Both the position numbers and the translations under genes were made by a program. DNA of 64,000 bases from Raillietiella orientalis. Lineage: Eukaryota. Every line of letters starts with the position of its first letter. Position 1 is the stretch's first letter. A model generated the notes under the pieces. It had not been told where the DNA came from and did not search any database. It worked only from the letters and a program-made list of their open reading frames with translations. The stretch is taken from contig JAYWIR010000063.1 in NCBI GenBank assembly GCA_036172245.1, forward strand, positions 496,001-560,000, in the 5' to 3' direction. Below, piece by piece: positions 13,044 to 41,074 of this stretch.

Positions 13044-16000
13044 TCAAAGGTGTGTAAACCGGCGATGTATTACGGTGATGTCCTCATTCACCTTGTCACG
13101 AAGATGAGACCACCTTGAAGCCTTCTCCATGAATTGAGCTGCAAGCAGGTGAGCCTCCCTTCGCTGCAATGACAACTCGAGGGCGTAGAGGGCCTTCACG
13201 ATGGCGCGAATGCAACACATGGTTGCAACAATCGCACCTACCGAAAATCCATCCCTTCTGAAGAAGCGCCACAGCACATCAATTGCAGTGCCTCCCTGCG
13301 GCAGGATGGCTGAAATCAGCCTTCGCCACAGTTCACGGAGGTCACCGCAGTCCAGCAAGAGGTGCGTAAAAGACTCGATTTCTCCGCACCTCAAACAGTT
13401 TGGCAAAGCAGCTCCCCCGGAAACGATGCTTCGCTGCCTATTACAGTGAAATGCACAATGTAAAAAGAGCAGCACATCTTGTTTCCACTTTAGAGGCAAC
13501 ACGGAGCTCTCCAAACAAAAGGAAGTAACCACTATCTCTTATGGGGCACACTTAAATGTTCGCTCCACCGAAGCAGGCCCTTTGCCCGATTCCTAGGAGT
13601 GGCGGCTTGCACCAGCTCCTTTGTCGTCCAGCTGCCAAAGAGCTAACTGACCCTCGCTATTTTAAAAAAGAACTCCCATTCCGCCGGTAGGCAACCGTCG
13701 TTGCTTGCCCCGAGAACAGACAGCGCTGCGGCGAGTGGTGTGGCGGCCAGACGATCCGACAACTTCTTGTTCTGCATGACTTCGTCCATTTGATGACTGA
13801 GGAGAAGTCGTAGGCGTCGAAGATCTTCCGATCGCGTTCCTTCGGAAGCTACCCACGATAAAAAAGATTCCTGCCGCCATGCAGTATTGTTCATTGAGGT
13901 GGCAGGAGATCCAGCTTTGGGCTTCCAGCAGTGAGGACAACTGCCTCAGCGGGTAGCCAAACCCTATTCCGGTGTGCCGAAAGTGGGGTAGCAACGAAAG
14001 CAGTCCCTCGCTTCCCGTGCAGCGCCTCATTATGAGGCATGCGGGTAAGCACCACGGCGTAAACCACTGCTTGGAACAGAGCCGCAGCATGCAAAACTGC
14101 ACCTGCAGTTCGATGCTGTTTAAGTCGAGGATGCCCAAGCCTGCATCCTGACGCGGCGCCACCAAGTCTTTAAGTCTAACACGGGATCTTGCAGCGCCCC
14201 ACAACGCTTTGCGAAAAAGGCGCTGCGCCCAGACTTTGACTTCCTGTGGGGGTGGACAAACAAAAAACTGGGGCGGAGGAGAGGGGCAACGAAGGTGTTC
14301 CAGATGCAGGCCCGTTCCGGCAAGACGAACTCGCCTCCTGAAAACGGGCCAAGTGCACGCTCTGCCTTCCGAAGGCAGTCCGACCACGCTTCTGAGATGC
14401 AGAAGTCGCCCAACGGCACGCCAAGGTACCTGAGGTACCTGCCCGTGGGAATCCCCAGGTCGATCCAGTCGGACTGCCCCTCTCACGTCGCACCCACCGG
14501 AACAACCATACACTTACTCCTGTTAACACTCACGCCCGCACCGCGACGAATCAACTCAAAGAAGTCTTCAAGCGATGTCGCCGGGGTGGACATGGGCAAC
14601 AGGAGAAGCAGGTCGTCGGCATAGGCTGCCACGGCCGGCGTACCTGGACAGGAACTCGGCAGGTTGGCTAGCGTCAGCCTGTAAGCCTCCAGCACCAATT
14701 CAAAATAGATGCTGAAGAGCAGCGCGCTTAAGCTATCACCCTGCCTAATTCCTCGTCGTACCGGCACGACATACACGCGACAGCCACTGAAAACAATGGA
14801 TGTAATCGCGTGGCGCCAGTAGGAGCGCATGTACGCCAACAGAGATGCCAGAAGACCCAGACGTTCCATAAGCTCAAGAAGAAGCTTTTGGTTCACGCAA
14901 TCGGAAGCTTTGTGCAAATCGACTGCAACCGGCAAGGCTCCCGGTGTCTCCCTCTGCGTCCCGCGCCTAAGTCGGTGTGAGATCGAAGGCGTCGCTTCCG
15001 CACGACGATCCACCGTCACACGATGCTGCAATTGCAGCCATGTGCGGATGAACAAGAGATTTGCGTCCATGGACCGCCCAGGAACAGCGTACGTCTGCTC
15101 CGGACTTACCAAGGAATCCGCGATCCTACCCATCCGCGCCACCGAAAGTTTCGAGAACAACTTGACATCCGAATTCACTGATGTGATCGGACGCCCGTTG
15201 TTCAGTTGGCGCAAATCTCCAAAATTCGGCAGTAGACGCACATTTGCTGATCAAAACGAGGCGGGTACATCGCCCGAGTCTCGCATCAGCGACGAGAGTT
15301 GGAGCACCAGGAGGATGAGCTCCGCCGCAAAACACTGGAAGAATTCCGCGGGGAACCCATCTTCGCCTTGCGCTTTTCGTTTCTTGAGCCCCGAGATGGC
15401 CGAAGAAATTCCCTCTGCCGTGAAGGGCTCATCAAGACGCGCGCGTTCCTCCTCGTCTACAACAGGTGCATCAATCGGCAGGAACAGCCCAGAAAGGCTG
15501 CGTTCCGTTGGTGCCTCTGCATACAGAGAAGAGTAATAGCGCCTGACTATTCATCGTACGTCGGCTGGAGCCCAGCATTCCCGGTCCTGGTCGTCGAGCA
15601 GAACTGTCGCCCCTGACTGCCAGACCTGGCGCTCGGCCTTGGCCTTGTACTCGGATAATCGACCAACGTCCGCGCGCCTGGAAAAACAGCGGGCCTGCAG
15701 AAAATCTCTGCTGTTAAGTACGCCCTCTCCGAAGCCGCGCCGAAGCTGGTGCAAGTGAAACCGTCAGCAGAACTCGCGGACCGATCTTTTCAGATCGTCG
15801 CAGTCCTCGAGCTCACTTATGGCAGAGCCAAGGAGGTACTGGCAAAGACGCTCAGCCGCCTCCGGGTGGCTCAGCCAGTCTGCCGGCATCGTCCAAAAAG
15901 AGTTTGGAAGCCCCTTGCCTGGCGGGAGAAACTCGAACTCGAGCCTGTTGTGGTCTGAAAGCACGGACGGCACGGGCCCTCTCCCACCCACTTGAGAGAG

Positions 16001-16615
16001 CAAGTGTTGTTCAAGGTAAACGTGGTCCGAATTTGCTAGCATAACAGGGTCGCTAGCGAACAAGTTGCACGCGTGGACGGACGCGCACATCTCTTTTGGT
16101 AGGAACTTTTCCCTTTTGTGGGATCTATTCTCGGAAAGCAGGTGGACGTTGAATTCCCCCGCAATGAGATGGGCCACAGTAGGGTGCGATCGAGTGAGCC
16201 ACTAACTTTGAAGGGTACCGAAGAACTCAAGGCTTTCGGCCCATCGTCCAGCACCGCTCGGCGCGTACACGTTGGTTACGACAAGGTCGATCGAGTCCAA
16301 CCACTTGAGTACAAGCTGTCCCACTCGACCTTCCGTGTCGAAACGAAAGCTGCGCACCGCTCCCGCCAAAGTTCCTCGCACGAGGAAAGCGACGCCGCAC
16401 GTACGCGCAACGCCGCACCTATGAAGTAGCGTTCCGCCCGCGCGCCGTTCGATTTCGGCAGCCTGCTCTTCGGAGATGCTGTGAATCTCCTGCAGGAGCG
16501 TCAAGTCGCAGGCGCGCAGAGCGTGAGCCACTAGTTGCCTCTTCTCGTCGTGTTGAAGCCCGTTGACGGTCCAAGACGTCACAACAACACGACGAGAAGA
16601 CGCGATTGCCCTCAT
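13044..16615 (-). pseudogene. C ORF2 (EN-RT-zinc knuckle), multiple stops and frameshifts
   Basis: SWTVNG, LQEIH, NVYAP, GEFN, SDH; DLHKASD, GIRQGDSLS, YADD; CLRCGEIESFTHLLLDC. Confidence 0.92.
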
Positions 16616-17289
16616 GGCGGCTGGGAAAGCGAGGCCATGGTGCTCGCCTCACCCGGCAAGCGGGAGGTAAGCAGCACGACGGACTGGAGGGCGCGGTCGC
16701 CACCGGCCTCGAATGTGCTGCACGTAATCGAGTGCTCCTCCCCGGGTGCAGAACCTGTGGATTCCGGGGTGAGCACTCGCCGTTCTGCGGTGAGTGTGTC
16801 ACGCCTTAGGGCTTCAACCCAGGGGGCGCTCGCTCCCGGGCGAGTAACGCGTCGTTCAGCGGCGCAATGGGACTCCTTTGGGGAGTCTGATGCTCGCACG
16901 ATCGACGAAAGCTTGCATCCGTCCGATTGCACCGGAATGGTCTTCTCGGTGGTTACAGAAGCGGACTTGCACGCGTTAGAGGCGCTGGCTTTTTCCTGGG
17001 AAGAGGCACAAGCTGCGCGTGGTTTCGTATTCGCGCGACTGCTTTTTCCTTTGGAAGAGCTCAAAGATGGATGTTGAGAAGCTTCTTTTGGAGATTTTTC
17101 TTTCCTCCTTTACACAACCTTACATTCGCCTTCGCGATTTTCGGAGGCTTTCGCGACAGATGTTGCGGAAACCTCCGGGATTTTCGCTGCGTTCTCTAGG
17201 GGAGCTGCGTTCCCTACGCCTTTTAAAGGCGGCAACGGAGTCACCTTCTTGACCGTCGGGAGATTGCTCCTCTCCTGCCGATTCAATGA

Positions 17290-20200
17290 ACCTGATTCGC
17301 GGCTCAAAGTATTGTGCGCACGACAACTTAATCAGTTAATTGTGATCGTGTGTGCCCGGAGAGGGGAAGTTTCCAGACGAAACTACAAAAGAAGCGCCAA
17401 GGAAATCGCCGCGGAAGACCTTCAGTAGTCCCGTGCAGCATGACCAGCTGCCAGGATGCAGGCACCTGGAGGAGGAGTGGAGAGACCGTCGTCCCCCATG
17501 GAAGCCATGGAGGTAACGTGCGGCAACGGCGAGGCGGTGGCAGGCATGCCGAGGATCGCGCCCGCAGCAGGCTTTGCTGCGCCGGCGGCGGCGACGCCAA
17601 GGGTCGTGCCCGCGGCGACGACGGCGGAGGTCGTGCCCGCGGCGGCGATGCCGAGGATCGTGCCCGCGGCGGGGAAGGTTGCGCCTGCGGCGGCGATGCC
17701 GAGTGTGCCGCCCGCGGCGGCAACGGTGGCGACGTCGAGGGTTGCGCTCGCGGCGGCGGCGTCCCAGGCAGAACCCGCAGGCGTCCACGCGGTTCAGGGC
17801 GAGACGCCATCTTGTTCGGCTGCGGCGTCGCAGCCCTTTTCTTATGCGTTGGTGGCGGCTGGACAAGTGGGTGTCCACCCACCTAGAAAATTCGGAAAGC
17901 CGCTATGCGGCAAAGTCCAAAAGGTGGATCGGACAATCGTGGATTTAGGGCCGAATGTGAAGCCCATCATTTTCAAGACTGAGCTGATCAAATTCAATAA
18001 TATCAGGAAGGTGTATCTGTCCCTCGATAAAACGGATATTAATTTTGATCGCATAAAAGCGATCATATCGGCAAATAACGGGTTCACAGTTTTTATAGAC
18101 TGTGCAAATATTAAAGAGCGATTGATCCAGAAGGAGATCAATATACAAGGGAGGATGGTTTCTGGTATTGGCAAAATGCCATACACAACCGTCTTTCTGA
18201 ACGGGATCTCCATCCTCACACCGCAACTAACGGTGTAGAATTTTTGGAGCTGTATGGGGAAGTTCTGGACCTTGAATTGCAGAACTTCTCTGGAAATATA
18301 TTTTCTAGCGACATGATCGCCAAAATGAAGTTGAAAGAGGGAGCTGTGATCCCTGGATTAGCCGTTCTTGACGAACAATCTCAGGGAGTGAACGTGCGTT
18401 ACCGGCAACAGCCGATATTCTGCACCGGGTGCAAGCAGTTCGGCCACAGGGCCGGCGCTTGCCCAACGTGTCGTTGTTTTCGCTGCGGCAAAGTAGGACA
18501 TTAAGTCCGAAACTGCCTGCAGCCGGAGGTGTGCTCCTTCTGCAAGAAACACGGACATGCCAAATGGAGCTGTCCGGAGTTTGCAAACTGCAGAAGGATT
18601 CGAGGTCTCTCTCCCGTAAGAGAGAGAAACACCAAGGAGGCGGAACAGCCTCAGAAGGCAGGAAGGCCGAAAAAGGTGAAAGAAGCCGTCCCGGTATCGG
18701 AAGACGGCTTCATACAGGTAGGGAAGAAAGGAAAGAGGAGGATGCTCGTCAAGGAGCAAGAAACCCCTCTTATCCTGGAAGGTGAAGAGCAAGAAGGCGA
18801 GAAGATGGAGGTAGCGCAGGAAGGCGCGGAAGACGAAAAAGCCGAAGCCACTCCGGTGTCACAGGAGGCCCTGCAATCTACGGAGGAGTTGGCATCACTG
18901 GCTAATGTAGTCCTAGAGGTGCAGAGCGGTCCCCAGCAAGAGAAAATCTTGCAGAAGATCTGCAATGCACAGGAGAAGGTCAACCAGGTTGTGGAGGTCA
19001 CCGAGCGCAAAAAGCTAGAGGAACAGCTTCTCGACGTAAAGGCGAACTTCTGCGCCAAGGTCCAGAGAGAGACGCTATCTCGAAAACTGATCGAGCGGGC
19101 CGAACACTCGACGGAGGAGGCGGAAGTAACCGACCTTACCGGAACAGAGAGTGACGCCGGCAGCGAGAAGCCCGCTGCTTCTTCATTGTCTGGAAGAGCA
19201 CGCTTTCTCAGACAGAAGAAGCTCAGGAAGGCCAAGAACTAGGTCTTCCCCTTTTATGACCTCTTCCCTATCGACCGCCAGGAGGCTGAACATCGCCTCC
19301 TGGAATGTAAACGGTATGGTCGACCAGGGAAAAAGAAAAAGGATTGTGCGGACTATCGCACAACAAGACAGTGTGCCTGCAGGAGACCCACAAGATGGGT
19401 CTCGAGATTAGTCAGCAAATGGAACGGCGATTCAACGGGAAGATTTTCGTCAGCGAGGGAGAACGGAACACGCAGGGTGTGGCGGTCCTAATCAAGAAAA
19501 ACTTGGCCCCCACTATTCTGGAAGTGTTCTGTCCCCAACCCGGACGAATCATCGGCGTGCGACTGGCCTGGTCCGCTACTGTTCACCTCATCCTGGTGAA
19601 TGTGTACGGGCCGCACAGGCTAAAACATCGTTGTGCGGAGGCGCTGCATGCAGCACTCCGTGAAAAGGTTGCTTCCAAGGACGTCGTGATTGTTGCTGGC
19701 GATCTCAACATATTGGATGAGATCACTCACTCCGAAGATGCCAGCGGAAGGACGGCGTATCGGCGGTTATCCGACGAGTTCGGACTGGTGTGGCGAACTG
19801 CAAGTCACAAGCCGATCGATCTCGTCCTGCACAGCACCGAACTTGGGAATCGCATCCAGGGTTTTCGAGACATTATGACCACGGTGTCCGATCACCCCCT
19901 GGAGCGGTTTTCCCTAAGAACGGGGAATCCTCGGCGGAGGCAACGCACCAGGGCGGCGCTCATCAGCATGCCCGCCTGGTTCGTAACCCATCCCGGACAT
20001 CAGGCTGTCCTGGAGACGATTCTGAAGGCAACAACAATCCGAAGAGTCGCCGACTGGGACAGCCTGAAACACAGGATACACCTGTTTGCAAACATGCAGT
20101 TCGGAGATAGGCGCTTGAGGCAGGAGGCGTACCGGGAGCTGAACATCCAAGATCGCTCACTCTCAAAGTACTTCGATCAGTACGAGAGTCGGTACGTCTT

Positions 20201-22911
20201 CAAGAACATAAAAGGGGAAGTCGGCGTGCTGGAGAAAAGAAATCTGGCAACAGATATCTTGTGCATCCAGTACGACGGTCAAAAGCGACAGTCGTCTGAG
20301 GACATCGTGGATGCCTTTCAAAGGCATTACATGAAACACTTTAGGCGACAACATCTCTGTCGCTCTAGTCAACAGGCCTTTCTGAGCTACCTCGAGAAGA
20401 GGACCGACGATCTCCAGCGGAACAGACTGGAGGAGGAATTCTCCGAAGACGAGGTGAAGACTGCGTTTGGTCAACTACGCAAGGACGTGGCAGCGGGCCC
20501 AGACAGCGTACCCATCACTCACTATCAGCGGTACTTGCATGCCTACCTGCGTTTGTTCCACCAGTTGACCCTCTGCATCCGTGAAGAAGGAAGACTTCCA
20601 CAGTCCTTATACGAGAGTCGGATGAGATTGTTGCCAAAAGGAGGCGACCTCACGCAGGTCGCTCAATGGAGGCCAATCTCGATTCTGAACTCGGATGCCA
20701 AGTGGTTGGCGAAGATCTGGTCCAACCGCTTAGGCAAGGTCATGTCGAGGCTCATCTCTCCGGTCCAAACGTGTGCAGTCCCTGGACGTTACATGTCGGA
20801 CAATGTCGAGTGTGCCCAGGCCACCGTCGGACTCAGCCGATACGTCGGCGAGAATCTGGCGCTGGTGTTCACTGACATGGAGAAGGCTTTCGACTCCATC
20901 GACCATGGGATGCTGCTGAAGGTTCTGGAGAAGCTAGGCCTTTCGGAACACTTCAGCAACTTCGTGAGGGTGGTACTTCAGAACCAGTACTGCCGAATCA
21001 AAATCAACGGCCAGGAGACGGCAGCAATCCGGATGGAACGGGGAGTCCGGCAGGGCGATTCGCTAAGTCCGATGCTGTTCGTCATCTACATGGAGGCGTT
21101 GTCGTCCTTTATCGAGAAGAGCGAACGACTGCAAGGCATAAGAATCGATGACCAGCGTCTTACCCATCTGGCATACGCTGATGATCCACTCTTCTTTATC
21201 AAGAGAGAGAAATCAACGAGCGTTTCTGGATGTAATAGAGCTGATGGATCAAGGCCTGGGTCTAAAGATCAACGTCCAGAAAAGCTAGCTCTTGCCCGTT
21301 GGAATCCTCGATCTCTCCACTCTAGCGGGGAGAGGATTCCGAACGGTGGACAAGGCCAAGTACCTGGGTGTCTACATTGGCGACGTCTCTGCGTCGAAGC
21401 TATTGTGGACCGAGATCCTAGGGAAAACGGCCAAGGAAGCAGCCAAGTACACCCGAACGGACCTTGGAATGAAGCGAAAGGCCAACATATGGAACGGAGT
21501 ACTCCTTCCAAAAGTGCTCTTCGGGGCGGCCTTCGCGAGGATGAACAAGGAAACCACGAAGGAGTTCGACAAGCTGCAGAGAAAAACACTGTGGGGCCAC
21601 TATCGCCCAAGAGTCCGACTAAAACCCCTGTGTCGTCCCAGGGAAGAAGGCGGTTCCGGGATGAAGTCGTTTGCACACTCCATAGAAATCATGGATACGC
21701 GACACATCCTGGACATTGCCACTCACTGGGATGACTGGCCGTATGCCGCGCACAGGGCCTACGCGTTGTTGTTGAACAACTCGAAAGGCCTGATGACTGC
21801 GCTGCTAGGCCGAGCAGGCGAATGGAAAAAAATCGACCCAACCTGGACGAGGAAGCAACGGCTGGTGCGAAAGCACAAAATCAAGATCGTGCCGAGAAGT
21901 AGGGAACTCTGGCAGGACGAGTTCATCCTGGTGATCCCTTGGATGCTTCCTGTCCCGCCGGACACGAGAAGCTGGATCCACCAGCGGTCCAGAGTTACCC
22001 TTCAACGAATCCAGGAGTGGAAACGTAAAGGGTACCTACATCACACTCGTATACTTAGGTATATAGAGATGATGTTAGGAAGGTTTACCCACATGACTCG
22101 CGAAGTGTGGTTCAACCACAACGACTTTGCGTGGTCTAGGGTAACCAAAACAAACCTCCGAAGACTAATTCAAGAAGAACATAGTGATATCAGTGCCCTC
22201 CAGGAAGCCGCCGATCGCTACGGGAGTGACCGGATCAACCTGTTAGCGATTGGCACGACGCTCTGGAGGAGTGACCTTCCGCCGGGCACCCAGGATGACC
22301 TCCTGATGTTTTATCATGGAGGAATCCAGAGTGGGTCCCGATCGCAGCACTACACCGGAAGAAGGGAAGATCGAGACTGCAGAGCATGTGGAGACATCGA
22401 CACGAGACTTCACGTCTTGACGTGTCCCACATTGCTGCATGACTGGCTGATCCTGAAAAGGATCATCGGACTCACCACCAGTTCCGTAATGGAGATCCTC
22501 GCCGGGATGTTTCAGGGGGATGGTAATGTTCCCTGTTACAATCCCATGGTGAGGACGACCATCGCCCTCTTCATCATCGCCATACTTGTGCGGTGGTGGA
22601 AAATGAGGAAAGCCAGAAGAGCCGCACCACCGATGGAGATCCTACAAGGGCTCCTGAAGAGGGAAATCGGCATTAGAAACTTTGGGAAAATCCAAGCCTG
22701 GACGTACCGATTCATCCTGAAGAGGATAGAAGACGACGCCCGGGACCAAACAGTAGGAAACCCACCATGAGTGCAGAACTTGTGAGAATCCAAGGACTTC
22801 ATAGTGGTAAAAAAAAGTGCTAATGGTATGGATGAGATTGTAGTGTGAATGTTTTTATAGAAAAATTTTAGAAAAATAAATTTACCCCACCCTCTTGGGA
22901 CTTGGGGAAAA
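17290..22911 (+). mobile_element. L1/Tx1-like LINE B1, full length, decayed
   Basis: Colinear with B2; ORF1 stops at 18238 and 18504, ORF2 frameshifts near 19370 and 21205; ends AATAAA..CCCCA..TGGGG-AAAA. Confidence 0.95.
17540..17770 (+). repeat. GC-rich ~27-30 bp coding minisatellite in B ORF1 (also ~23180-23410)
   Basis: Repeated PR(I/V)VPAAA-type units, e.g. gccgaggatcgtgcccgcggcg. Confidence 0.8.
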
Positions 22912-23096
22912 CTGCCGAGTCGGCGAACTTGCTCCGCGGCTCAAAGTATTGTGCGATTGACAAAGTAATCAGTTAATTGTGCTCGTGTGTGCCCGGAGAG
23001 GGGAAGTTTTCCAGACGAAACTAAAAGAAAAGAAGCGGCGAGGAGATCGCGGCAAAAGACCTGCAGTGGTCCCGTGCAGCAAGACCAGCTGCCAGG

Positions 23097-24884
23097 ATGC
23101 AGGCACATAGAGGAGGAGTGGAGAGACCGTCGTCCCCCATGGAAGCCATGCAGGTAACGTGCGGCAACGGCGAGGCGGTGGCAGGCATGCCGAGGATCGC
23201 GCCCGCGGCGGGCTTTGCTGCGCCGGCGGCGGCGATGCCAAGGGTCGTGCCCGCGGCGACGACGGCGGAGGTCGTGCCAGCGGCGGCGACGCCGAGGATC
23301 GTGCCCGCGGCGGGGAAGGTCGCGCCTGCGGCGGCGATGCCGAGGGTGCCGCCCGCGGCGGTAACGGCGGCAACGTCGAGGTTTGCGCCCGCGGCGGGGG
23401 CGTCCCAGGCGGGACCCGCGGGCGTCCACGCGGTGCAGGGAGCGACGCCATCTTGTTCGGCTGCGGCGTCGCAGCCCTTTTCTTATGCGTCGGTGGCGGC
23501 TGGACAGGCGAGTGTACACCCACCTAGGAAATTCGGTAAGCCGCTTAGCGGAAAAGTTCTAAAAGTGGACCGACCAATAGTCGAAATAGGCCCCAACGTG
23601 AAGCCCATTATCTTCAAGACGGGGCTAATAAAATTTAATAACATCAGGGAGGTCTATTTGTCCCTCGACAAGACGGACATAGACTTTGATCGCATTCAGG
23701 CGATCATTCCATCGAACAACGGGTTCACAGTCTTTACAGACTGTGAAAACATTAGAGAGCGATTGATCCAGAAGGGGATCAATATACAAGGACGGATGGT
23801 TTGTGGTATTGGCAAGATGCCATACACAACCGTCTTTTTAAACGGCATCTCCATCCTCACACCGCAACTAGCGGTGTGGAATTACTTGGAGCAGTTTGGG
23901 GAAGTTCTGGACCTTGATTTCCAGAACTTCTCTGGAAACATATTTTCTGGCGACATGATCGCCAAGATGAAGTTGAGGGAAGGAGCGGTGATCCCTGGAT
24001 TGGCCGTTATTGACGAACAATCCCAGGGAGTGAATGTGCGTTACCGGCAACAACCGGTATTCTGCACCGGGTGCAAGCAGTTCGGCCACAGGGCCGGCGC
24101 TTGCCGAACGTGTCGTTGTTTTTGCTGCGGCAAAGTAGGACATCAAGTCCGAAACTGCCCGCAGCCGGAGGTGTGCTCCTTCTGCAAGAAACACGGACAT
24201 GCGAAATGGAGCTGTCCGGAGTTTGAAAACTGCAGAAGGATTCGAGGTCTTTCTCCCGTGAGAGAGAGAAACATCAAGGAGGCCGAACAGCCTCAGAAGA
24301 CAGGAAGGCAGAAAAAAGTGAAAGAAGCCGTCCCGGTGTCGGCGGACGGCTTCATAGAAGTGGGAAAGAAGGGAAAGAGGAGGATGCTCGTCAAGGAGCA
24401 AGGAACTCCTCAAATTTTGGAAGCAGCAGAGCAGGAAGGCGAGAAGATGGAGGTAGCGCAGGAAGGAGCGAAGGAAGAGAGACAGGAAGCCACTAAAGTG
24501 TCGCAGGAGGCTCTGCAGACTACGGAGGAGTTGGCAACACTGGCGGAGGAGATCATGGAGGTGCAGAGCGGTCCTCAGCAAGAGAAAATCTTGCAGAAGA
24601 TCTGCACTACACAAGAGAACATCAACCAGGTGGTGGAGGTCGCTGAACGCGAGAAGTTAGAGGAACAGCTTCTCGACGTGAAGGCGAACTTCTGCGCCAA
24701 GGTCGAGATAGAGGCGCTATCTCGAAAATCGATCGCGCAGGCGGAACACTCTACGGAGGAGGCGGAAATTACCGACCTCACAGGTACGGAGAGTGACGCC
24801 GGCAGCGAGAAGCCCGCTGCTTCTTCATTGTCTGGAAGAGCACGCTCTCTCAGACAGAAGAAGCTCAGGAAGGACAAAAAATAG
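23097..24884 (+). CDS. B2 ORF1, gag-like protein with three CCHC knuckles
   Basis: 595-aa open frame; CTGCKQFGHRAGAC, CFCCGKVGHQVRNC, CSFCKKHGHAKWSC; coiled-coil-like and basic C-terminus. Confidence 0.92.
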   Translation: MQAHRGGVERPSSPMEAMQVTCGNGEAVAGMPRIAPAAGFAAPAAAMPRVVPAATTAEVVPAAATPRIVPAAGKVAPAAAMPRVPPAAVTAATSRFAPAAGASQAGPAGVHAVQGATPSCSAAASQPFSYASVAAGQASVHPPRKFGKPLSGKVLKVDRPIVEIGPNVKPIIFKTGLIKFNNIREVYLSLDKTDIDFDRIQAIIPSNNGFTVFTDCENIRERLIQKGINIQGRMVCGIGKMPYTTVFLNGISILTPQLAVWNYLEQFGEVLDLDFQNFSGNIFSGDMIAKMKLREGAVIPGLAVIDEQSQGVNVRYRQQPVFCTGCKQFGHRAGACRTCRCFCCGKVGHQVRNCPQPEVCSFCKKHGHAKWSCPEFENCRRIRGLSPVRERNIKEAEQPQKTGRQKKVKEAVPVSADGFIEVGKKGKRRMLVKEQGTPQILEAAEQEGEKMEVAQEGAKEERQEATKVSQEALQTTEELATLAEEIMEVQSGPQQEKILQKICTTQENINQVVEVAEREKLEEQLLDVKANFCAKVEIEALSRKSIAQAEHSTEEAEITDLTGTESDAGSEKPAASSLSGRARSLRQKKLRKDKK

Positions 24885-24897
24885 GTCTTCCCCTTTT

Positions 24898-27800
24898 ATG
24901 GCCTCTTCCCTATCGACCGCCAGGAGGCTGAACATCGCCTCCTGGAACGTAAACGGTGTGGTCGACCAGAGAAAAAGAAGAAGGATTGTGCGGACCATCG
25001 CACAACAAGACATCGTGTGCCTGCAGGAGACCCACAGGATGGGTCTGGAGATAAGCCAGCGAATGGAACGGCGATTCAACGGGCAGATGTTCGTCAACGA
25101 AGGAGAACGGAACACGAAGGGTGTGGCGGTGCTAATAAAGAACCACTTAGCCCCCACTATTCTGGAAGTGTTCTGTCCCCAACCCGGACGAATCATCTGC
25201 GTGCGACTGGCCTGGTCTGCGACTGTTCACCTTATCCTGGTGAACGTGTACGGGCCGCAAAGGCTAAAACATCGTTGTGCGGAGGCGCTGTATGCAACAC
25301 TCCGGCAAAAGGTCGCCCCTAAGGACGTCGTGATTGTTGCTGGCGATCTCAACATCTTGGATGAGATCATTCATTCGGAAGACGCCAGAGGAAGGACGGC
25401 GTATCGACGGCTATCCGAGGAGTTCGGACTGGTCTGGCGAACAGCAAGCCACAAGCCAATCGATCACGTCCTGCGCAGCACCGAACATGGGAACCGCATC
25501 CAGGGGTTTCGCGACACTATGACTACGGTGTCCGATCACCCCCTGGTGCGGTTTTCCCTAAGAACGGAGAATCCTCGGCGGAGGCAAGGCACCAGGGCAC
25601 CGCTCATCAGCATGCCCGCCTGGTTCGAAACCCATCCCGTTCATCAGGCTGTCCTGGAGACGATTCTGAAGGCAACAACAATCCGAAGAGTCGCCGACTG
25701 GGACAGCCTGAAACACAGGATACACCTGTTTGCGAACATGCAGTTCGGGGATAGGCGCTTGAGGCAAGAGGCGTACCGGGAGCTGAACATCCAAGATCGC
25801 TCCCTCTCAAAGTACTTCGATCAGTATGAGAGTCGGTACGTCCTCAATAACATAAAAGGGGAAGTCGGCGTGCTGGAGAAGAGAAATCTGGCAACAGATA
25901 TCTTCTTCATCCAGTACGACGGCCAAAAGCGACAGTCGTCTGAGGACATCGTGGATGCCTTTCACAGGCATTACACGAAACACTTCAGGCGACAACAGCT
26001 GTGTCGCTCTAGTCAACAGGCCTTCTTGAGCTATCTCGAGAAGAGGACCGACGACCTCCAGCGGAACGGACTGGAGGAGGAGTTCTCCGAAGAAGAGGTG
26101 AAGACTGCGTTTGGGCAACTTCGCAAGGACGTGGCAGCGGGCCCTAACAGTGTACCCATCACGCACTATCAGCGGTACCTGCACGCCTACCTGCGCTTGT
26201 TCCACCAGTTGACCCTCTGCATCCGGGAAGAAGGCAGACTACCTCAGTCCTTCTACGAGTGTCGGATGAGATTGCTGCCAAAAGGAGGCGACTCTACCCA
26301 GATCGCCCAATGGAGGCCAATCTCGATTCTAAACTCCGATGCCAAGTGGTTGGCGAAGATCTGGTCCAACCGCTTAGGCAAGGTCATGTCGCGGCTGATC
26401 TCTCCGGTCCAGACATGTGCAGTCCCAGGACGACACATGTCGGACAATGTCAAGTGTTCCCAGGCCACTGTTGGACTCAGTCGATACGTCGGCGAGAACC
26501 TGGTGCTGGTGTTCACTGACATGGAGAAGGCCTTCGACTCCATCGACCACGGGATGCTGCTGAAGGTTCTGGAGAAGCTAGCGCTTCCGGAACACTTCAG
26601 CAACTTCGTGAGGGCGGTACTCCAGAACCAGTACTGCCGGATCAAGATCAACGGCCAGGAGATGGCAGCAATCAGGATGGAACGAGGAGTCCGACAGGGC
26701 GACTCGCTAAGTGCGATGCTGTTCGTCATCTATATGGAGGCGTTGTCGTCCTTTATCGAGAAGAGCGGACGACTAAGCGGGATTACCATCGATAGCCAGC
26801 GTCTTACCCATCTGGCATACGCCGATGATCTACTCTTCTTCATCAAGGGAGAGAAAAATCAGCGTGCGTTTCTGGATGTGGTGGACCTGATGGAACAGGG
26901 CTTGGGCTTAAAAATCAATTCCCAGAAGAGCCAGCTTTTGCCCGTCGGAATACTGGATCTCTCCACTCTAACGGGTAGTGGATTCCGTACGGTGGACACA
27001 GCCAAGTACCTGGGAGTCTACATCGGCGACGGCTCTGCGTCGAAGCTGCTGTGGAAGGAAATCCTGGGGAAAACGGCCAAGGAAGCAGCCAAGTACACCC
27101 GAACGGACCTTGGGATGAAGCGAAAGGCCAACATATGGAACGGAGTACTCCTTCCAAAAGTGCTCTTCGGGGCGGCCTTCGCGAGGATGAACAAGGAAAC
27201 CACGAGGGAGTTCGACAAGCTGCAGAGGAAAACACTCTGGGGCCACTATCGCCCAAGAGTAAGACTGAAACCCCTGTGTCGTCCCAGGGAAGAAGGCGGT
27301 TCCGGGATGAAGTCGCTTGCACATTCCATGGAAATCATGGATACGCGACACATCCTGGACATTGCCACTTACTGGGATGACTGGCCGTATGCGGCGCACA
27401 GGGCCTACGCGTTGTTGATTAACAACTCGAAAGGCCTGATGACTGCGCTGCTAGGCAAAGTAGGGGAATGGATAACAATCGACCCGACCTGGAGGAGGAA
27501 GCAACGGCTGGTGCGGAAGCACCAAATCAAGATCGTGCCGCGAAGCAGGGAACTCTGGCAGGACGAGTCCATGCTGGTGATCCCTTGGTTGCTTCCTGTC
27601 CCGCCGGACACGAGAAGCTGGATCCACCAGCGGTCCAGAGTTACCCTTCAACAAATCCAGGAGTGGAGGCGAGGAGGCTACCTACATCAAACACGTATAC
27701 TTCGGTATACAGAGATGATGTTAGGAAGGTTTACCCACAGGACCTTCGAAGTGTGGTTCAACCACAACGACTTCGCATGGTCGAGGGTAACCAGAACAAA

Positions 27801-28470
27801 CCTCCGAAGGCTTATCCAAGAAAACGACGGTGACACCAGTGCCCTCCAGGAAGCCACCGAACGCTACGGGAGTGAACGGTTCAACCTGTTAGCGATCGGC
27901 ACGACGCTCTGGAGGAGTGACCGTCCGCCGGGCACCCAGGATGACCTCCTGATGTTTTATCACGGAGGAATCCAGAGTGGGTCCCGATTGCAGCACTTCA
28001 CAGGAAGACGGGAAGACCGAGACTGCGCAGCATGTGGCGACGACGACACGAGACTTCACGTCTTGACGTGTCCCACACTGCTGCATGACTGGCTGATCCT
28101 GAAAAGGATCATAGGACTTACCAACAAGTCCGTTATGGAGATCCTCGCCGGGATGTTTCATGGGGATGGTAATGTTCCCTGTTACAATCCCATGGTGAGG
28201 ACGACCATAGCCCTCTTCATCACCGCCATACTTGTGCGGTGGTGGAAAATGAGGAAAGCCAGGAGAGCCGCACCACCGATGGAGATCCTACAAGGGCTCC
28301 TGAAGAGGGAAATCGGCATCAGGAACTGCGGGAAGATCCACGCCTGGACGTACCGATTCATCCTGAAGAGGATCCAGGACGACGCCCGGGACCATCCAGC
28401 TGGAATTCCCCCTGAAAAGCAGAACTCTAGTGCAACCCAAGGACCCCCAAGTGCAAAATGTTTGTATTGA
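24898..28470 (+). CDS. B2 ORF2, AP endonuclease-reverse transcriptase (~1190 aa, intact)
   Basis: ATG 24898 (MASSLST); SWNVNG, LQETH, NVYGP, GDLN, IDH, SDH; DMEKAFD, GVRQGDSLS, YADD, KYLG; CAACGDDDTRLHVLTC. Confidence 0.96.
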   Translation: MASSLSTARRLNIASWNVNGVVDQRKRRRIVRTIAQQDIVCLQETHRMGLEISQRMERRFNGQMFVNEGERNTKGVAVLIKNHLAPTILEVFCPQPGRIICVRLAWSATVHLILVNVYGPQRLKHRCAEALYATLRQKVAPKDVVIVAGDLNILDEIIHSEDARGRTAYRRLSEEFGLVWRTASHKPIDHVLRSTEHGNRIQGFRDTMTTVSDHPLVRFSLRTENPRRRQGTRAPLISMPAWFETHPVHQAVLETILKATTIRRVADWDSLKHRIHLFANMQFGDRRLRQEAYRELNIQDRSLSKYFDQYESRYVLNNIKGEVGVLEKRNLATDIFFIQYDGQKRQSSEDIVDAFHRHYTKHFRRQQLCRSSQQAFLSYLEKRTDDLQRNGLEEEFSEEEVKTAFGQLRKDVAAGPNSVPITHYQRYLHAYLRLFHQLTLCIREEGRLPQSFYECRMRLLPKGGDSTQIAQWRPISILNSDAKWLAKIWSNRLGKVMSRLISPVQTCAVPGRHMSDNVKCSQATVGLSRYVGENLVLVFTDMEKAFDSIDHGMLLKVLEKLALPEHFSNFVRAVLQNQYCRIKINGQEMAAIRMERGVRQGDSLSAMLFVIYMEALSSFIEKSGRLSGITIDSQRLTHLAYADDLLFFIKGEKNQRAFLDVVDLMEQGLGLKINSQKSQLLPVGILDLSTLTGSGFRTVDTAKYLGVYIGDGSASKLLWKEILGKTAKEAAKYTRTDLGMKRKANIWNGVLLPKVLFGAAFARMNKETTREFDKLQRKTLWGHYRPRVRLKPLCRPREEGGSGMKSLAHSMEIMDTRHILDIATYWDDWPYAAHRAYALLINNSKGLMTALLGKVGEWITIDPTWRRKQRLVRKHQIKIVPRSRELWQDESMLVIPWLLPVPPDTRSWIHQRSRVTLQQIQEWRRGGYLHQTRILRYTEMMLGRFTHRTFEVWFNHNDFAWSRVTRTNLRRLIQENDGDTSALQEATERYGSERFNLLAIGTTLWRSDRPPGTQDDLLMFYHGGIQSGSRLQHFTGRREDRDCAACGDDDTRLHVLTCPTLLHDWLILKRIIGLTNKSVMEILAGMFHGDGNVPCYNPMVRTTIALFITAILVRWWKMRKARRAAPPMEILQGLLKREIGIRNCGKIHAWTYRFILKRIQDDARDHPAGIPPEKQNSSATQGPPSAKCLY

Positions 28471-28550
28471 GTGAATGAGAGTGCGAATGTAAATTTTGTA
28501 TTTTTATAGAAAAATAAACTTACCCCACCCCTTGTGGGACTTGGGGAAAA

Positions 28551-29795
28551 CTGCCGAGTCGGCGATGGCTCGACTGCATGCAGCGTGCTTTTGCTCGTCG
28601 CGACGCTGCTTTTTACGGCTTTCGTAGCCTTTGCAGTGGGTCCTGCGCTGCAGTGGGGCTGTCCGGAACTCGGAAGGGACAACGGAACGGGGCAAGAAGT
28701 CTTCGCACTGTTGCGATCTTCCTGTTTTCCTACCTTTCCCTCGAGGGTGTTACGGAGATTTCCTGGTTCCTGGCTCGGAGAGGTGCCTGCGAGTTCGGCA
28801 GAGAGGGAAGGCACGGCACGCGTCAAACCCTCGCGCCCCTTTTTAATTGGCTTCCCCGCCGTGACTTTCCCCTTTCGGGGCGTTGCGGGCGGGGATGCTT
28901 TCTTTTCATCCGCGGATCGCTCGTGGTTTTTTGCGAGTTTTTGCGGACGACGTTTTTTATTTGCCGCTGCAGCTTTTCGTGCAGTGGTCTCTTGAACCCG
29001 ACGAATTTCCGCTGCAGCTCTTTTTCTTGCAAGTACCGGGCACTTTTTGATTTCGTGCCCGGAATCTTTGCAATAGCGGCATCTTGGAGAGGGGCACTCT
29101 TTAATTCGGTGCCCATCCTTGCCGCACTGCTCGCACGCGCGAGTCTGGCCTATGAACCACAGGTGAACGACCGTGCCGTTCACCTGCAGCTGCTCAGGCA
29201 CAACACGCCTGTTCGCGACGGTGATCCGCGCGGAGGCTTGTCCAATGTGGACAGAGGGGAAATCCTTTAGAGGATTTGGCCTCCTCCACAGAGCGTGCAC
29301 GGTGGCGAACTTCGCCAGCACACTTACGACATCGCGGTCGGAGATTTCCGGTTCGATATCGCACAATTGAACGACAAAAGAGTCGTCCATCGCGGTAGGT
29401 AGGACTTCCTTGCCATTGATGGTAAACGGCGTACGGAGAAGGCGCTGCACAAGTGCTGCGTTCTTGCACCGAATCTTCGTATATTCCATCCTGCCAGCAG
29501 GCATTATGGCAAGGAGTTCCTCCTCGCGAACGCCGATCCGGACGAGCTCATCATTGAGCTCACGACCGATCCTCCCGTTAAGGGGCCCACTGACCTTATA
29601 ACGGAGTGCAGGCATGTATCCTAATGACACATATGCCTGGAACTCCGCATCGCAGGGTCCTGGTCTTTGGGAGGTAACGGCGGCGTAACTCCTCACCGGG
29701 GGCGAGGAAACCATTACGGAGGATGCGGCCACTTCAAGTGCAGCTGAAGTGCATCCAGTGGCTTGCTCCTCCACACTATCCTGTGTACTGGCCAT
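28551..29795 (-). pseudogene. C ORF1 N-terminal part, cut by the B insertions
   Basis: GYMPALRYKV and VHLWFIG homologous to A0/A1 ORF1; knuckles CEQCGKDGHRIKEC and CRYCKDSGHEIKKC. Confidence 0.9.
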
Positions 29796-29909: not shown

Positions 29910-32254
29910 ACGAGCGCAAGAGATCGAATGGATCTCCGGAGGGCGGCTGTGGTACAGGTGTGGAAGACCGAAAAGTTGCGGTGTCGCCTACCTGCTTCGG
30001 CCAACCGTCGAGGCCGAGGCTCGGTGCGTACGGTTCTACGATCACGGTCGTGTCGGCTAGCTGACTCTCAGGTGGTCCGACTCGATCGATCTGATCGTCA
30101 CGAAAGTGTACGCACCGAGCAGCGCGGACCTGAGGAACAGGAGGGCGAGGAAAGAGTTTTTCCTTGCCCTCCGGCGCGACTGGCTGACCGAAGCAGGCGT
30201 GCGGAATGCCCATCTGGTTGCAGGCGATTTCAACGTTCGCCTGAAACCAGATGGGCAGAATCCCGAGCGTGACCTGGTCAACGAGGTGTGCATGGCGGTG
30301 CACACCTGTAATCTGTTGGCCAGTGCACCGGGGATGGAAGACAGCATTAACCACCTGTTTCTTGACGAGCACCTGTGCCCTCGCGTGGGCAGGCGCGGCA
30401 AGTTACCGTGCGAGCTGTCCGACCATCGCCCGCTAGTCCTCGAGATCCATCCGCGCGACAGGGGCCTTCCCTCGTCAGCGTGGCGTCTCCCAGGGGACTG
30501 GCTGATGCTCCCGGACGCGGCGGAACATCTCCGCACGTTCATACGGAGCTTCAGGCTGCGGACACTCCAGGATTGGGACCGCTTCAAGCGGTCGGTCCAG
30601 GAGTTCTGCGACCAGTTCCCTCTGCACCGCCTACCTACGGGTTTTGGGATCAAGGCTTGTAACGAACGAGCCTATCTGCAGGCCCGCCGTTACGTTAGGA
30701 CCCCCGACATCCGCAGGCTGGCGGAATACAAAGCGGGAGCCGAGAGGCAAGCCTGGCAGTCCGGATCGGCCAGCTTGCTGGACGATCAGGGCCAGGAGCA
30801 CTCGGCAATCGCCCAAATCCGCGGCTTGCTGCGGAGTTACTACTCCTCCCTGTATGCCAGGGCACCTCCGGAGAGGAACGTCTCACGACTCCTGCTTCCG
30901 GAAGGCGCTCCAGCGATCGAGGAGGAGGAGAGAAGGACCCTCGACGAGCCTTTCACGATGGACGAGATCCTCTCGGCCATCGGAGAGCTCAAGAGGCGCA
31001 AGGCTCCAGGGGAGGACGACCTGCCCGCGTAGTTTTATCAAACTTTCGCGGCTGAGCTTACCCCCCTGGTACAGCAACTCACCTTGATGATACGCGAGAC
31101 AGGTCACGTTCCCGCCTCGTTTCGTTCGGCAAAGGTGCGGCTCCTTCCTAAGGGAGGAGATCTGAGGAGCATTAACAACTGGCGTCACATAACAATAGTG
31201 AATGCGGACTCCAAGTTGCTAGCTAAGGTTTAGGCAGAGAGGTTGTGACGGGTTGCCAACATCTTCATCAGCCCGGAACAGACATATGCTGTTCCCGGGC
31301 GAAGCATGGAGGCGAACCTGTTCCACGCTTCCACCTGGCTAGAGCTCCAACATGAAAGGAGCTTGGTGCGCAGCCGGAATTCCGGTGCGTGCGTCGGCAA
31401 GGGGTAGGATGGTCGGGTGGGGAAGGTAGCCCTTGCGGTCGCAATCGACTTGCGGAAAGCATTCGATTGCGTCGACCAGAATCTCCTTCTGGAGCTTCTG
31501 GAACGCTTAGGCTTCCCGGCCTCATTAGTGGCCTACCTGTGCTCCTGCTGGCGCGACGCGCTCATCAACGTTTCTTTCAGAGGACAGACCGTGCACGGCG
31601 TGCCAATGCGGCGTGGGATCCGGCAGGGAGACAGCCTGAGCCCCTTGGTCTTCAGTACCTACTTTGAGTTGGTACTGAGAGCGTACAGGGGAACGCTGGC
31701 GCACCTGCCGCACGACTGTGCCGGTACGCCGGCCGTTTCAGCGTACGCGGACGACCTTCTGCTGCTGCTACCTATGTCCACCCCGGCATCGGCGGTCGAG
31801 GAGTTCTTCGACCTGCTAAGTCGGGGAACCGGGCTTGAGGTGAACAGGGCGAAGTCGTCCGTCATGCCAGTTGGTGCGGCGTGGGCAAGGCAGCAGGACT
31901 GGGTCCGTTTGGGGATCCCCACGGTGAGGTACTTCAAGTACCTCGGTGTGTCGTTGGGGACTACTTTCCGGCGGTAGCGTGGTTTGGCTGCCTCCAAAAA
32001 GTAGAGACGGCGATCGGCCCGTTCCGAGGCGGCAAGTTTTTCTTGCCTGAACGGGCTGCGGTTTGGAACACGTTCGCGGCTCCTCTCCTCCGCCCCCTGC
32101 TTTTTGTTTGCCCCCCCACAGAGAGAATTAAAAAGCAGGCAAAGGACCTCCTCCGTATCGCCCTTTGGGGCAACGGGAGGGCCCGAACCCGCTTAAAGGA
32201 CTTGTGCGCTCCTCGTCGGGACGGTGGTCTGGGCCTCTTGACGCTGGAGCGGCT
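29910..32254 (+). mobile_element. LINE A0, segment 3 (ORF2 EN-RT, decayed, 3' part lost)
   Basis: Resumes AQEI|EWISGGRLWY exactly where segment 2 stopped; VYAP, GDFN, SDH, DLRKAFD, YADD. Confidence 0.9.
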
Positions 32255-32973
32255 TCCGGGTCGGCCAGGTTGCTGGACGACCAGGGCCAGGAGCACTCGA
32301 CTCCGGCTAGAATAGGGCACTTCGTGCGGCGTTATTATTCCTCCCTTTACGCCAGGGCGCCCCCGGACCAAGATGCCTCTCGGCGCTTGCTTCCGGACGG
32401 TGCCCCGGCAATAGGGGAGGAGGAGAAGGACAGCCTGGACGAGCCTTTTACCAACGGCGAAATTCTCGCCAGTATCAAAAGGCACAAGAAACGGAAAGCA
32501 TCAGGGGAGGACGGCCTTCCCGCGGAGTTTTTTCAATGCTTCTTGGCAGAGCTGGCACCCCTGGTGCTTGAGTTGCCAAGGCTGATCCGAGATGAAGGCG
32601 ATGTACCCGCCTCGTTTCGGTCAGCCAGAGTGAGGCTCCTTCCGAAAGGAGGAGACCTCAGGAAACTCAGCAACTGGAGTCCGATCACAATTGTGAATAC
32701 GGATGCCTAGCTGATCGCCGGACTGTGGGCTTCGCGTCTGGGGCAAGTGGCCAATTCCATAATTAGCCCGGAGCAGACTTACGCTGTTCCCGGGCGAAGT
32801 ATGGAGGCCAACCTCTTCTTCGCGAGCACATGGTTTCATGTGCAGAGTTGTGGAGAAATGAAAGAGGGAACGATTGGCAGCTCCGCTTTGGGGGCGTCAG
32901 CCGGGCAGGGACAGGACTCCCAGGAGGGGAAGGGGGCCCTAGCGATCGCAGTCGATCTGCATAAAGCGTTCGA
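32255..32973 (+). mobile_element. 5'-truncated A1-subfamily ORF2 fragment (D)
   Basis: SGSARLLDD..RAPPDQDASR..DLHKAFD, close to A1 9330-10050. Confidence 0.88.
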
Positions 32974-34546
32974 TTTTCACCCGGATTTCGCCGGGGCGTT
33001 TATTATAAAATAAACATTTACAAAGTCGTGCAGTGGCTGGACCATTGCTCCAGCCACGCACGAAGAAACACAGAGCCTGCCGGGTCACCGGTTCGCAGAC
33101 CAGTACGGTCCACCACGGCTGCAGGGGGAAGGGGGAAAAACAAAAAACAAAACAAAAAGAAAAGAAAAAACTGGGAGGGTACGGGAGGGGATCACAGTTG
33201 CTGGTGGGGCCGTTGCATCCTTTGCAGGATGCCGGCAAGCTCTTGCTGCATGCTTGGATCCAGGTGGGGCCATCGCGACGCCCTCCTCAGGAACTGGGAG
33301 GCTGGCTGGATGGCACCCTTGTCGTGTGGTCCTCCCGTAGCCTTGCTCCAGGCGGTGACGATCCCGCTTAGGCAGCACAAAGCTGCTAACGAGGCCGCTG
33401 GCCGAAGGGCGTCGGCAACGAAGAGGGCTTTAAGAACGTCCCTGGGGTTGCCGCAAGGGATCCTATGGCCGCGGCGAAGCGGAACCAAAGGGGCCGAAGG
33501 GCAACACAATCCACTAGCAGGTGGGGGAGGGACTCCCGTTCCCCACATCTGACGCAATTGGGGTCCACCGCTCCCCAGGTCCAGTGGTGTCGGCGGGCGT
33601 TGCAGGGGAGTCCCCAGTGCTGCAACAGGAATGCCGACTCCTGCCATTTTAAGGGGAAAGTGGAGGTGTTCATTAGTATTGGGAGCCACTTCAAACGTTC
33701 AATGGGAACGTCTAGCAGCGCGCCTTAGCGTAGAAGTCCATGGGGAGGCGTACTAGGGGTGGCAGCGTCAGTCAGCTGACCCGTCTTCTACTCTCCTATC
33801 TCCTTCTCCTTCCCGGAGATTGTTACTGTAACCACCAACTTCGCCGCAACATCGCTGTCCAGATCTTCCATCAGGGAGGGCAGCGCAGCAGCGAGGGGGG
33901 TTCTTCCTGCCCACGCTCTCTTCTTTGGATCCTCCAGGATCTCGCGGAGCGTGCAACTTCTGTAACCTCCAAACAGGAACCTTCGTTCCTGTTGGGAGCG
34001 TTGCATGCCGAACTGTCCCCACGTTCGAACGGTTTCCTGCAACCAGGCACTACCGTTCAAAGGGCGACAGGTGACCAATCCTGGGTTTTTCCGTGACAGC
34101 GCAGCCACCCTCCGTAGCTGGAGTCCGCATCGGTTGACGCGGCGACGGAGTGCAAGAAACGACGTCAGTCCCGTCTTGCCGGTGGGTTGCTGGAGAAGGA
34201 GACGTGCAGGGACGCACCAACAGGTGCACCACAACTCTGGAACAAGTGCCGAAATTCGGAACTGGAGCTGAAGCTCCAGCCGCTCCAGCGTCAGGAGGCC
34301 CAGACCACCATCCCGATGCGGAGCCCACAAGTCCTTCAAGAGGACTCCGGCCCTTCCGTTGCCCCAAAGGCGATACGGAGGAGGTCCTTCGTCCGGTTTT
34401 TTATCCTCTCTGCGGGGATGCAAACAAAAAGCATGGAACGGAGGAGAGGAGCCGCGAACGTGTTCCAAACCGCGGCCCGTTCAGGCAGGAAAAACCTGCC
34501 GCCTCGGAGCGAACCTATCGCCGTCTCTACTTTTGGGAGGCAGCCA
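32974..34546 (-). mobile_element. 5'-truncated A0-subfamily LINE (E), 3' end intact
   Basis: Inverted homology to 31984-32254; DGGLGLLTLERLELQ, CVRCGERESLPHLLVDC; terminal AATAAACGCCCCGG..CCGGGTGAAAA. Confidence 0.9.
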
Positions 34547-36493: not shown

Positions 36494-36542
36494 GTAGGAT
36501 TCGTGGATCTTAAGTCCAATGAATTGATTCTGCCATATTAGA
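36494..36542 (-). tRNA. trnL2: mt tRNA-Leu(UUR) pseudogene, partial
   Basis: TCTAATATGGCAGA..TTGGACTTAAGATCCA directly after cox1. Confidence 0.8.
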
Positions 36543-38047
<1,505 letters not shown>

Positions 38048-38049
38048 TA

Positions 38050-38110
38050 GGTTCATAAGATTTTGTATTTCTAACCTTGAAGGTTAGTAGTTTATTTAAC
38101 TTATAATCTT
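38050..38110 (-). tRNA. trnW: mt tRNA-Trp pseudogene
   Basis: AAGATTATAAGTTAAATAAACTACTAACCTTCAAGGTTAG, anticodon TCA. Confidence 0.75.
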
Positions 38111-38127
38111 CAAGTGAAGTATTGGGT

Positions 38128-38190
38128 AGAGTAAAATAACTGAGCAAAGTGGTAAATTGTAAATTTATTAATGATAAAATGGAGTTTGAT
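38128..38190 (+). tRNA. trnY: mt tRNA-Tyr pseudogene
   Basis: GTAAAATAACTGAG..GTAAATTGTAAATTTAT, anticodon GTA. Confidence 0.7.
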
Positions 38191-38191
38191 A

Positions 38192-38250
38192 ATTAGATAA
38201 TGTTCTTGAGTTTGTGGAATTGCAAATTCTATGTCATATAAGAATTGCCG
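38192..38250 (+). tRNA. trnC: mt tRNA-Cys pseudogene
   Basis: Anticodon arm GGAATTGCAAATTCT. Confidence 0.6.
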
Positions 38251-38257
38251 TGTTATA

Positions 38258-38325: not shown

Positions 38326-38329
38326 AAAC

Positions 38330-39003: not shown

Positions 39004-39014
39004 ATTTAATTGTG

Positions 39015-39075: not shown

Positions 39076-39096
39076 TGCTTGTTATTGAGATTTGTG

Positions 39097-41070: not shown

Positions 41071-41074
41071 ATAG

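Follow-up and report, generated by a model that had tools for sequence, protein, structure and literature searches.

A structurally intact L1-group LINE in Raillietiella orientalis and its probable insertion at a 15-bp site used earlier by a sister copy

The tandem B1-B2 locus

We analyzed a 64,000-nucleotide stretch of DNA from Raillietiella orientalis (assembly GCA_036172245.1, contig JAYWIR010000063.1, positions 496,001 to 560,000; this whole stretch is hereafter the window), in which a full-length long interspersed nuclear element (LINE), here named B2, occupies positions 22927..28550. A preliminary description of this DNA presented B2 as an intact, compact, and site-specific element and as the youngest insertion in the window; however, it omitted an older tandem copy, B1, immediately upstream. 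The upstream target-site duplication (TSD) of B2 is common to this tandem copy, so B2 is not a simple solo insertion. The B1-B2 pair lies antisense to an older minus-strand LINE, host LINE A, and the order at the locus is degenerate TSD, B1, TSD, B2, and TSD. The features are listed below in window coordinates (ORF, open reading frame; UTR, untranslated region; RRM, RNA recognition motif).

13989..17274, minus strand: remainder of host LINE A, comprising the ORF1 continuation and then a decayed ORF2
17275..17289, read directly: degenerate upstream TSD of B1, matching at 11/15 positions
17290..22911, plus strand: B1, full-length tandem copy of 5622 bp, older and 9.7% diverged
22912..22926: middle target copy, 15 bp, serving as upstream TSD of B2 and downstream TSD of B1
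22927..28550, plus strand: B2, intact LINE of 5624 bp, full length and colinear with B1 from end to end, with both ORFs open
22927..23096, plus strand: 5' UTR of B2, 170 nt, with the same first nucleotide as B1 and differences from it at 19 of 166 aligned positions
23097..24884, plus strand: ORF1, 595 amino acids (aa), with a repeat-rich N-terminus, two RRM-like domains, three CCHC knuckles, and an acidic/basic tail
24885..24897, plus strand: spacer between ORF1 and ORF2, 13 nt, arranged in the same way in B1
24898..28470, plus strand: ORF2, 1190 aa, with an apurinic/apyrimidinic (AP) endonuclease, a reverse transcriptase (YADD), and a C-terminal CX2CX7HX4C motif
28471..28550, plus strand: 3' UTR of B2, 80 nt, closing with a 4-A tail immediately preceded by a terminal stem-loop, which folds in B1 too
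28551..28565: downstream TSD of B2, 15/15 identical to the middle copy, with an 11-bp palindrome at its centre
28566..29795, minus strand: host LINE A, ORF1 with two CCHC knuckles, interrupted by B1/B2

Under the standard code, both ORF1 and ORF2 of B2 were read without interruption, and ORF2 starts with its own ATG in the +1 frame relative to ORF1. B2 is the sole intact element in the window, as had been claimed: the window has 32 ORFs of 150 aa or more, of which those outside B1 and B2 reach at most 574 aa, and all the other ORF2-like regions are fragmented, with no further open ORF2. Within the B2 coding region, 638 of the 16065 possible single-base changes would create a stop codon, and with neutral decay above ~1.4% a copy free of stops would have a probability of less than 0.05; thus, the absence of stops bounds the neutral decay of B2 at about 1.4% or less, and B2 is a young insertion in the sense of this upper bound on its decay. 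With both ORFs and both termini intact, B2 has the structure expected of a retrotransposition-competent LINE; it is a reasonable, albeit unproven, candidate for a still-active, site-specific element and may be active at present. At 5.6 kb, with an ORF2 of 1190 aa, it is of ordinary LINE size, and the epithet "compact" was therefore dropped.

The termini of B2 were defined by comparison with B1. Both elements start at the same nucleotide after the duplication, in an identical TSD register, and they share the 3' terminus, which reads ...GGGGAAAA (...TGGGACTTGGGGAAAA) in both copies. Given the common first nucleotide and the common 3' end, both termini of B2 were called complete, in agreement with the preliminary description, which had also reported a perfect TSD. 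Indeed, the 15-mer CTGCCGAGTCGGCGA at 22912-22926 recurs at 28551-28565 with all 15 positions identical, and these are its sole two exact matches in the window. An 11-bp palindrome, with 5-bp arms around one central base, is centred exactly in this 15-mer, and centred arms of at least 5 bp were found in only 0.15% of the 15-mers of the window. The target belongs to the low-complexity tail of ORF1 in host LINE A. Upstream of B1, the host ORF1 frame resumes at 17289 and runs for 59 codons, the first five of which are the degenerate TSD copy, and decayed endonuclease (EN) and reverse transcriptase (RT) similarity of host LINE A then extends from 16609 down to 13989. The degenerate copy at 17275-17289 has four differences; G-to-A or C-to-T transitions account for three, and two of these transitions fall at CpG.

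B1 and B2 are colinear from end to end and 90% identical, with 547 differences over 5613 aligned positions and 8 indels. The ratio of nonsynonymous to synonymous substitution rates (Ka/Ks) between the two was 0.215 for ORF1 and 0.218 for ORF2, ranging from 0.13 to 0.33 in sub-regions. A ratio of ~0.22 indicates that most of the divergence between B1 and B2 arose in a lineage under purifying selection and not in place, and thus that B1 and B2 were separate insertions at the same nucleotide. The two B insertions at one nucleotide are evidence for sequence-specific targeting, at this one locus only. Disabling changes were confined to one copy: B1 carries nine (three frameshifting indels and six in-frame stops) and B2 none. 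G-to-A and C-to-T differences were in excess in B1 relative to B2, with 187 against 114 in the reverse direction. Taken together, the one-sided damage, the identical middle and right targets, and the decayed left target fit an old B1 insertion and a much later arrival of B2 in the target copy downstream of B1. From the nesting order and the lack of disabling mutations in B2, it follows that B1 and the host LINE both predate B2; the claim that B2 was the youngest insertion therefore stood against these two elements, but not against every other repeat in the window. On insertion, B1 had host DNA to its left and B2 had the B1 tail, yet the nick positions were unchanged; recognition is thus placed mostly inside the 15-mer or on its right side.

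Several side observations concern the ends and composition of the two copies. At 28523-28550 in B2 and 22885-22911 in B1, a stem-loop of the form CCCC(A)CCC ... GGG ... GGGG abuts the 4-A tail, with different loop sequences in the two copies, and this terminal stem-loop is a candidate RT-binding signal. Folded as a whole, the 3' UTR of B2 gave a strong structure (z -5.1) and that of B1 did not (z -1.1); since only the terminal stem-loop is common to both, no claim is made for the upstream hairpin. An Rfam search of the whole window gave no matches. GC-rich 27/48-bp tandem repeats at 23187-23361 in B2 and 17546-17721 in B1 encode the proline/alanine-rich N-terminus of ORF1, and a 160-aa minus-strand ORF at 22969-23451, antisense to these repeats, was taken as chance. 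A 537-aa minus-strand ORF at 28182-29795 was likewise rejected as a gene overlapping B2, being the host ORF1 that reads by chance through the antisense B2. The observed/expected ratio of CpG was ~0.95 in B1 and B2, a decay that is AT-biased and without strong CpG depletion.

Proteins and relatives of B2

The uninterrupted ORF1 with three CCHC knuckles, which had been noted before, was recovered as a 595-aa frame with CX2CX4HX4C motifs at aa 323, 341, and 360. ORF1 matched 735 proteins of a representative library at E<=1e-3, typically across aa 184-383. In a 53-row alignment, the cysteines and histidines of knuckles 1 and 2 were invariant and those of knuckle 3 nearly invariant; in Pfam, zf-CCHC was matched by 49 of the 53 aligned members, and the other 4 matched ZCCHC3's first RNA-binding domain. 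ZCCHC3 is a host zinc-knuckle protein that is reported to restrict LINE-1, and these 4 matches hint that the ZCCHC3 gene and ORF1s of the B2 type share ancestry. The AlphaFold (AF2) model of aa 150-385 had a mean predicted local distance difference test score (pLDDT) of 88.6 and showed two alpha/beta domains followed by the knuckles. Its top fold matches in the PDB were tandem-RRM proteins (HuR, NONO, and hnRNP A1 UP1 among them), at E ~5e-5 and with modest template modelling (TM) scores of 0.26-0.35. In the scheme of Khazina and Weichenrieder, as quoted in the available text of Ivancevic et al. 2016 (PMC5203782), a Type I ORF1p combines at least one RRM with a CCHC zinc knuckle. Both were found in B2, the ORF1 of which is predicted from the model to be a Type I ORF1p with two RRM-like domains and three CCHC knuckles.

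In ORF2, Pfam identified Exo_endo_phos (PF03372) at aa 14-214 (E 2.1e-18, profile positions 1-225 of 225) and RVT_1 (PF00078) at aa 462-708 (E 1.9e-32). All the AP-endonuclease-type (APE) motifs and the YADD listed in the preliminary description were present: SWNVNG at aa 16, LQETH at 43, AGDLN at 149, SDH at 212, YADD at 641, and also VYGP. The CX2CX7HX4C at aa 1043 is the C-terminal cysteine-histidine motif of the L1 group. When ORF2 was aligned with 35 relatives (36 rows), Q43, Y118, G149, D150, N152, D189, and H214 were invariant and N17, T45, and D213 nearly invariant. The catalytic AP-endonuclease residues N17, E44, Y118, D150, N152, D189, D213, and H214 are present in ORF2, the majority being invariant over the 36 rows. 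By sequence, the best match among solved structures was human L1 ORF2p (E 7.2e-52), and R2 matched at 8.2e-26. In the alignment with human L1, the YADD at aa 641 falls opposite FADD, and QETH, GD(L/F)N, and (Y/F)ADD are common to both; the RT thus has the (Y/F)ADD motif and the closeness to L1 ORF2p by which the L1 group is recognized. The model of the EN region (aa 1-245; pLDDT 85.8, predicted TM score 0.84) adopted an AP-endonuclease fold, with human L1-EN as the top PDB match (TM 0.70-0.73), followed by ExoIII, APE1, and TRAS1-EN. Judged from its sequence, ORF2 is a predicted EN-RT-CCHC ORF2p of an APE-type LINE of the L1 group (L1/Tx1).

The nearest relatives of the B2 ORF2 are other LINEs in the window; among 54 database proteins, the closest are 21-30% identical. 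In a 51-row RT tree obtained by a quick method, B1 and B2 formed a group with the window's other three LINE RT rows (Shimodaira-Hasegawa-like approximate likelihood ratio test [SH-aLRT] 97). A careful tree of 37 rows, from which 14 long-branched rows of the 51 had been dropped, recovered the five-row window LINE clade with support of 100/99. Neither B1 nor B2 was among the rows named for unusual composition, which numbered 12 in the 51-row tree (with 2 more unnamed) and 8 in the 37-row tree. Apart from the window rows, both trees held only unnamed or auto-named database proteins. The B family is accordingly one of a set of sister LINE lineages in this genome.

Further decayed LINE copies of the host lineage lie at 5190-12000 (+), 29914-33000 (+), and 44015-45700 (-); they include the tandem ORF1-like ORFs 5190-6533 and 6614-8338 and fragmented ORF2s, and two RT pieces, 9523-10829 and 30952-32246, share 76% identity. 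A decayed mitochondrial insert in nuclear DNA, AT-rich and with strong strand skew, spans ~36500-43000. The named matches of its COX1 fragment were all metazoan among the best 120 matches. Three fragments were recognized in this insert.

37106-37588, minus strand: COX1 fragment
40486-41088, minus strand: fragment of an ND5-like antiporter subunit
41889-42161, plus strand: cytochrome b fragment

Proposed insertion mechanism and alternative explanations

We consider it probable that B2, a structurally intact LINE of the L1 superfamily (L1/Tx1 group), arrived by target-primed reverse transcription (TPRT) at a specific 15-bp site used earlier by B1. In the mechanism that we propose, TPRT would have taken place at the 15-bp sequence in the tail of the host LINE A ORF1, with the element antisense to this host. 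Each insertion would duplicate this target, thereby regenerating the site on both sides, and B2 would have used the target copy downstream of B1, giving the head-to-tail pair. The endonuclease may read the 11-bp palindrome at the target centre and nick each strand 2 nt 3' of it; the bottom strand would be nicked first and would prime cDNA synthesis at the AAAA end of the element, and a top-strand nick 15 bp downstream would then yield the 15-bp duplication. The centred palindrome suggests that both strands are nicked symmetrically, and on a post hoc reading of the target one endonuclease specificity may serve both strands, with the order and symmetry of the nicks presumed. The same specificity on both strands would explain the fixed 15-bp stagger, the two regenerated targets, and the head-to-tail stacking. 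Site specificity would presumably extend beyond the locus at 22912-28565.

A number of observations weigh against this reading, in whole or in part. The palindrome was noticed post hoc. The preference for the target sequence was seen as two independent insertions at one nucleotide, but at one locus, that is, at one physical site; no second target copy, empty or occupied, was found in the window, where the six other matches have three mismatches each and none carries a B element. The earlier claim of site specificity is therefore supported in part, by the two independent insertions at one nucleotide (Ka/Ks 0.22) of this single site. The left TSD, changed at 4/15 positions, exceeds the few percent of neutral decay estimated for B1; we put this excess down to its three CpGs and to small numbers, but the original duplication made by B1 could also have been imperfect. 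In the metagenome scans, the protein-based search with ORF2 gave 41 pattern stretches, none of which was confirmed by tblastn, and the search for the B2 3' end gave none; an index search with the ORF2 DNA, the ORF2 protein, and the host ORF1 likewise gave no similar sequence. At E<=0.01, Pfam reported no match for ORF1, zf-CCHC included, and no zf-RVT for ORF2; the ORF1 knuckles and the ORF2 motif were both seen by pattern and alignment, and zf-RVT is precomputed for many of the 54 database matches of ORF2. Finally, the three host-family rows had an unusual amino-acid make-up in both RT trees, which could inflate their grouping.

Beyond the insertion itself, B2 might be a live member of a set of sister LINEs of an animal genome that use one another as landing sites, reading a palindrome, cutting symmetrically, building head-to-tail arrays within ORF1 of a related LINE, and acting as a TPRT integrase with a 15-bp address; we advance this only tentatively and regard it as doubtful. 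A substantial possibility is that B2 is intact but dead or silenced, as a recent copy whose family has since died out or come under full repression. The metagenome scans returned no near-identical copy, and neutral decay of up to ~1.4% fits the open frames, so missense damage is possible; on the other hand, all the conserved catalytic and zinc-binding positions that were examined are present in B2, both of its ends are complete, and its TSD is perfect.

The shared site of B1 and B2 might also reflect an insertion drawn to the locus and not to the sequence, for example by LINE-island chromatin, by a B copy already in place, or by a chance nick at which a read-through RNA 3' end anneals, with an endonuclease of weak specificity. 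Both events occurred at one locus, where the effects of locus and sequence are inseparable, and LINE clustering in LINE islands is known for Zepp and ZeppL (available portion of PMC8226300). However, the nick positions on both strands coincide to the nucleotide despite the differing left contexts, and a regional preference would not fix the nucleotide; we therefore regard this explanation as unlikely. A local tandem duplication of a single insertion, by unequal crossing-over or replication slippage between TSD copies, is very improbable and largely refuted by Ka/Ks and the one-sided damage: unequal exchange between the flanking repeats would also yield a head-to-tail pair with a shared 15-bp junction, but the neutral decay expected thereafter predicts a Ka/Ks of ~1 and similar damage in both copies, whereas 0.22 was observed for both ORFs, all nine disabling mutations fell in B1 (0.5^9, ~0.002, if randomly shared), and several stops would be expected in B2 had it diverged by 9.7% without selection.

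Sequence-specific LINEs are natural models for the TPRT insertion of DNA at a chosen site, and the second-strand cut made by APE-type elements is still poorly understood. The intact copy and its 15-bp palindromic target form a concrete pair of protein and substrate, for which the decayed sister B1 provides an internal control at the same site. If B2 were indeed a live, symmetric palindrome cutter, it would amount to a TPRT integrase found in nature, with a known address of 15 bp and second-strand cleavage that follows a simple rule; if it is inactive, or if its specificity fails genome-wide, it would be one more young LINE copy.

Comparison with known LINEs

The available text of Kojima 2015 (PMC4494074) describes Tx1 as an animal clade, many members of which show target preference, including for sites inside other transposons. 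Thus, Tx1L inserts into Tx1D, Tx1-Mar into Mariner-N4_AMi, and Tx1-8_Crp and Tx1-4_AMi into long terminal repeat (LTR) retrotransposons (excerpts of PMC4494074 and PMC1950540). According to the portion of PMC5203782 that was available, ORF1 variants with RRM and zf-CCHC are in keeping with the Tx1 clade. As far as these sources describe them, B2 resembles Tx1L of Xenopus laevis, Keno, Kibi, Koshi, and the crocodilian Tx1-Mar, Tx1-8_Crp, and Tx1-4_AMi in being an APE-type element of the L1 group, and in a putative target preference seen at one locus. Unlike these named Tx1 elements, however, the B elements have as their target the ORF1 tail of a related LINE, in antisense; the likeness is by description, and the lone frog protein (P0012) among the 54 ORF2 matches did not group with B in either tree.

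Human L1 shares the EN-RT-CCHC order with B2 and is its best match both in sequence and in the EN fold. The integration-site consensus of L1-EN is short, TTTT/AA (available text of PMC1950540); in contrast, at the B target the primed 3' end reads ...CGGCAG, the element's tail has only 4 A, and a fixed 15-mer forms the TSD. The L1 ORF1p, as classified in the excerpt of PMC5203782, is of Type II (coiled coil, RRM, and C-terminal domain), whereas that of B2 would be of Type I.

Zepp of Chlorella and Coccomyxa and ZeppL of Chlamydomonas are L1-type LINEs that insert into LINE copies and form LINE-only islands (as given in the available part of PMC8226300). By the same account, Zepp arrays consist mostly of 3' ends, owing to 5' truncation and self-nesting, whereas B1 and B2 are full length and lie in another family. 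The ORF1 of Coccomyxa L1/Zepp is HTH_1-like (PMC5203782, in the text available), in contrast to the RRM and CCHC domains of B2, and the hosts of Zepp and ZeppL are green algae, whereas the window looks animal, with its metazoan-type mitochondrial insert. Judged by description, B1 and B2 thus lack the self-nesting, 5'-truncated arrays and the green algal host of Zepp and ZeppL.

R1 (R1Bm), a site-specific APE LINE of 28S rDNA, is a further parallel: its endonuclease is reported, in the available text of PMC1919474, to cut both target strands specifically. R1 differs in clade and in target (rDNA), and its likeness to B2 is by description only. In kind, target-specific APE-type LINEs are already known, and B2 is a probable further member.

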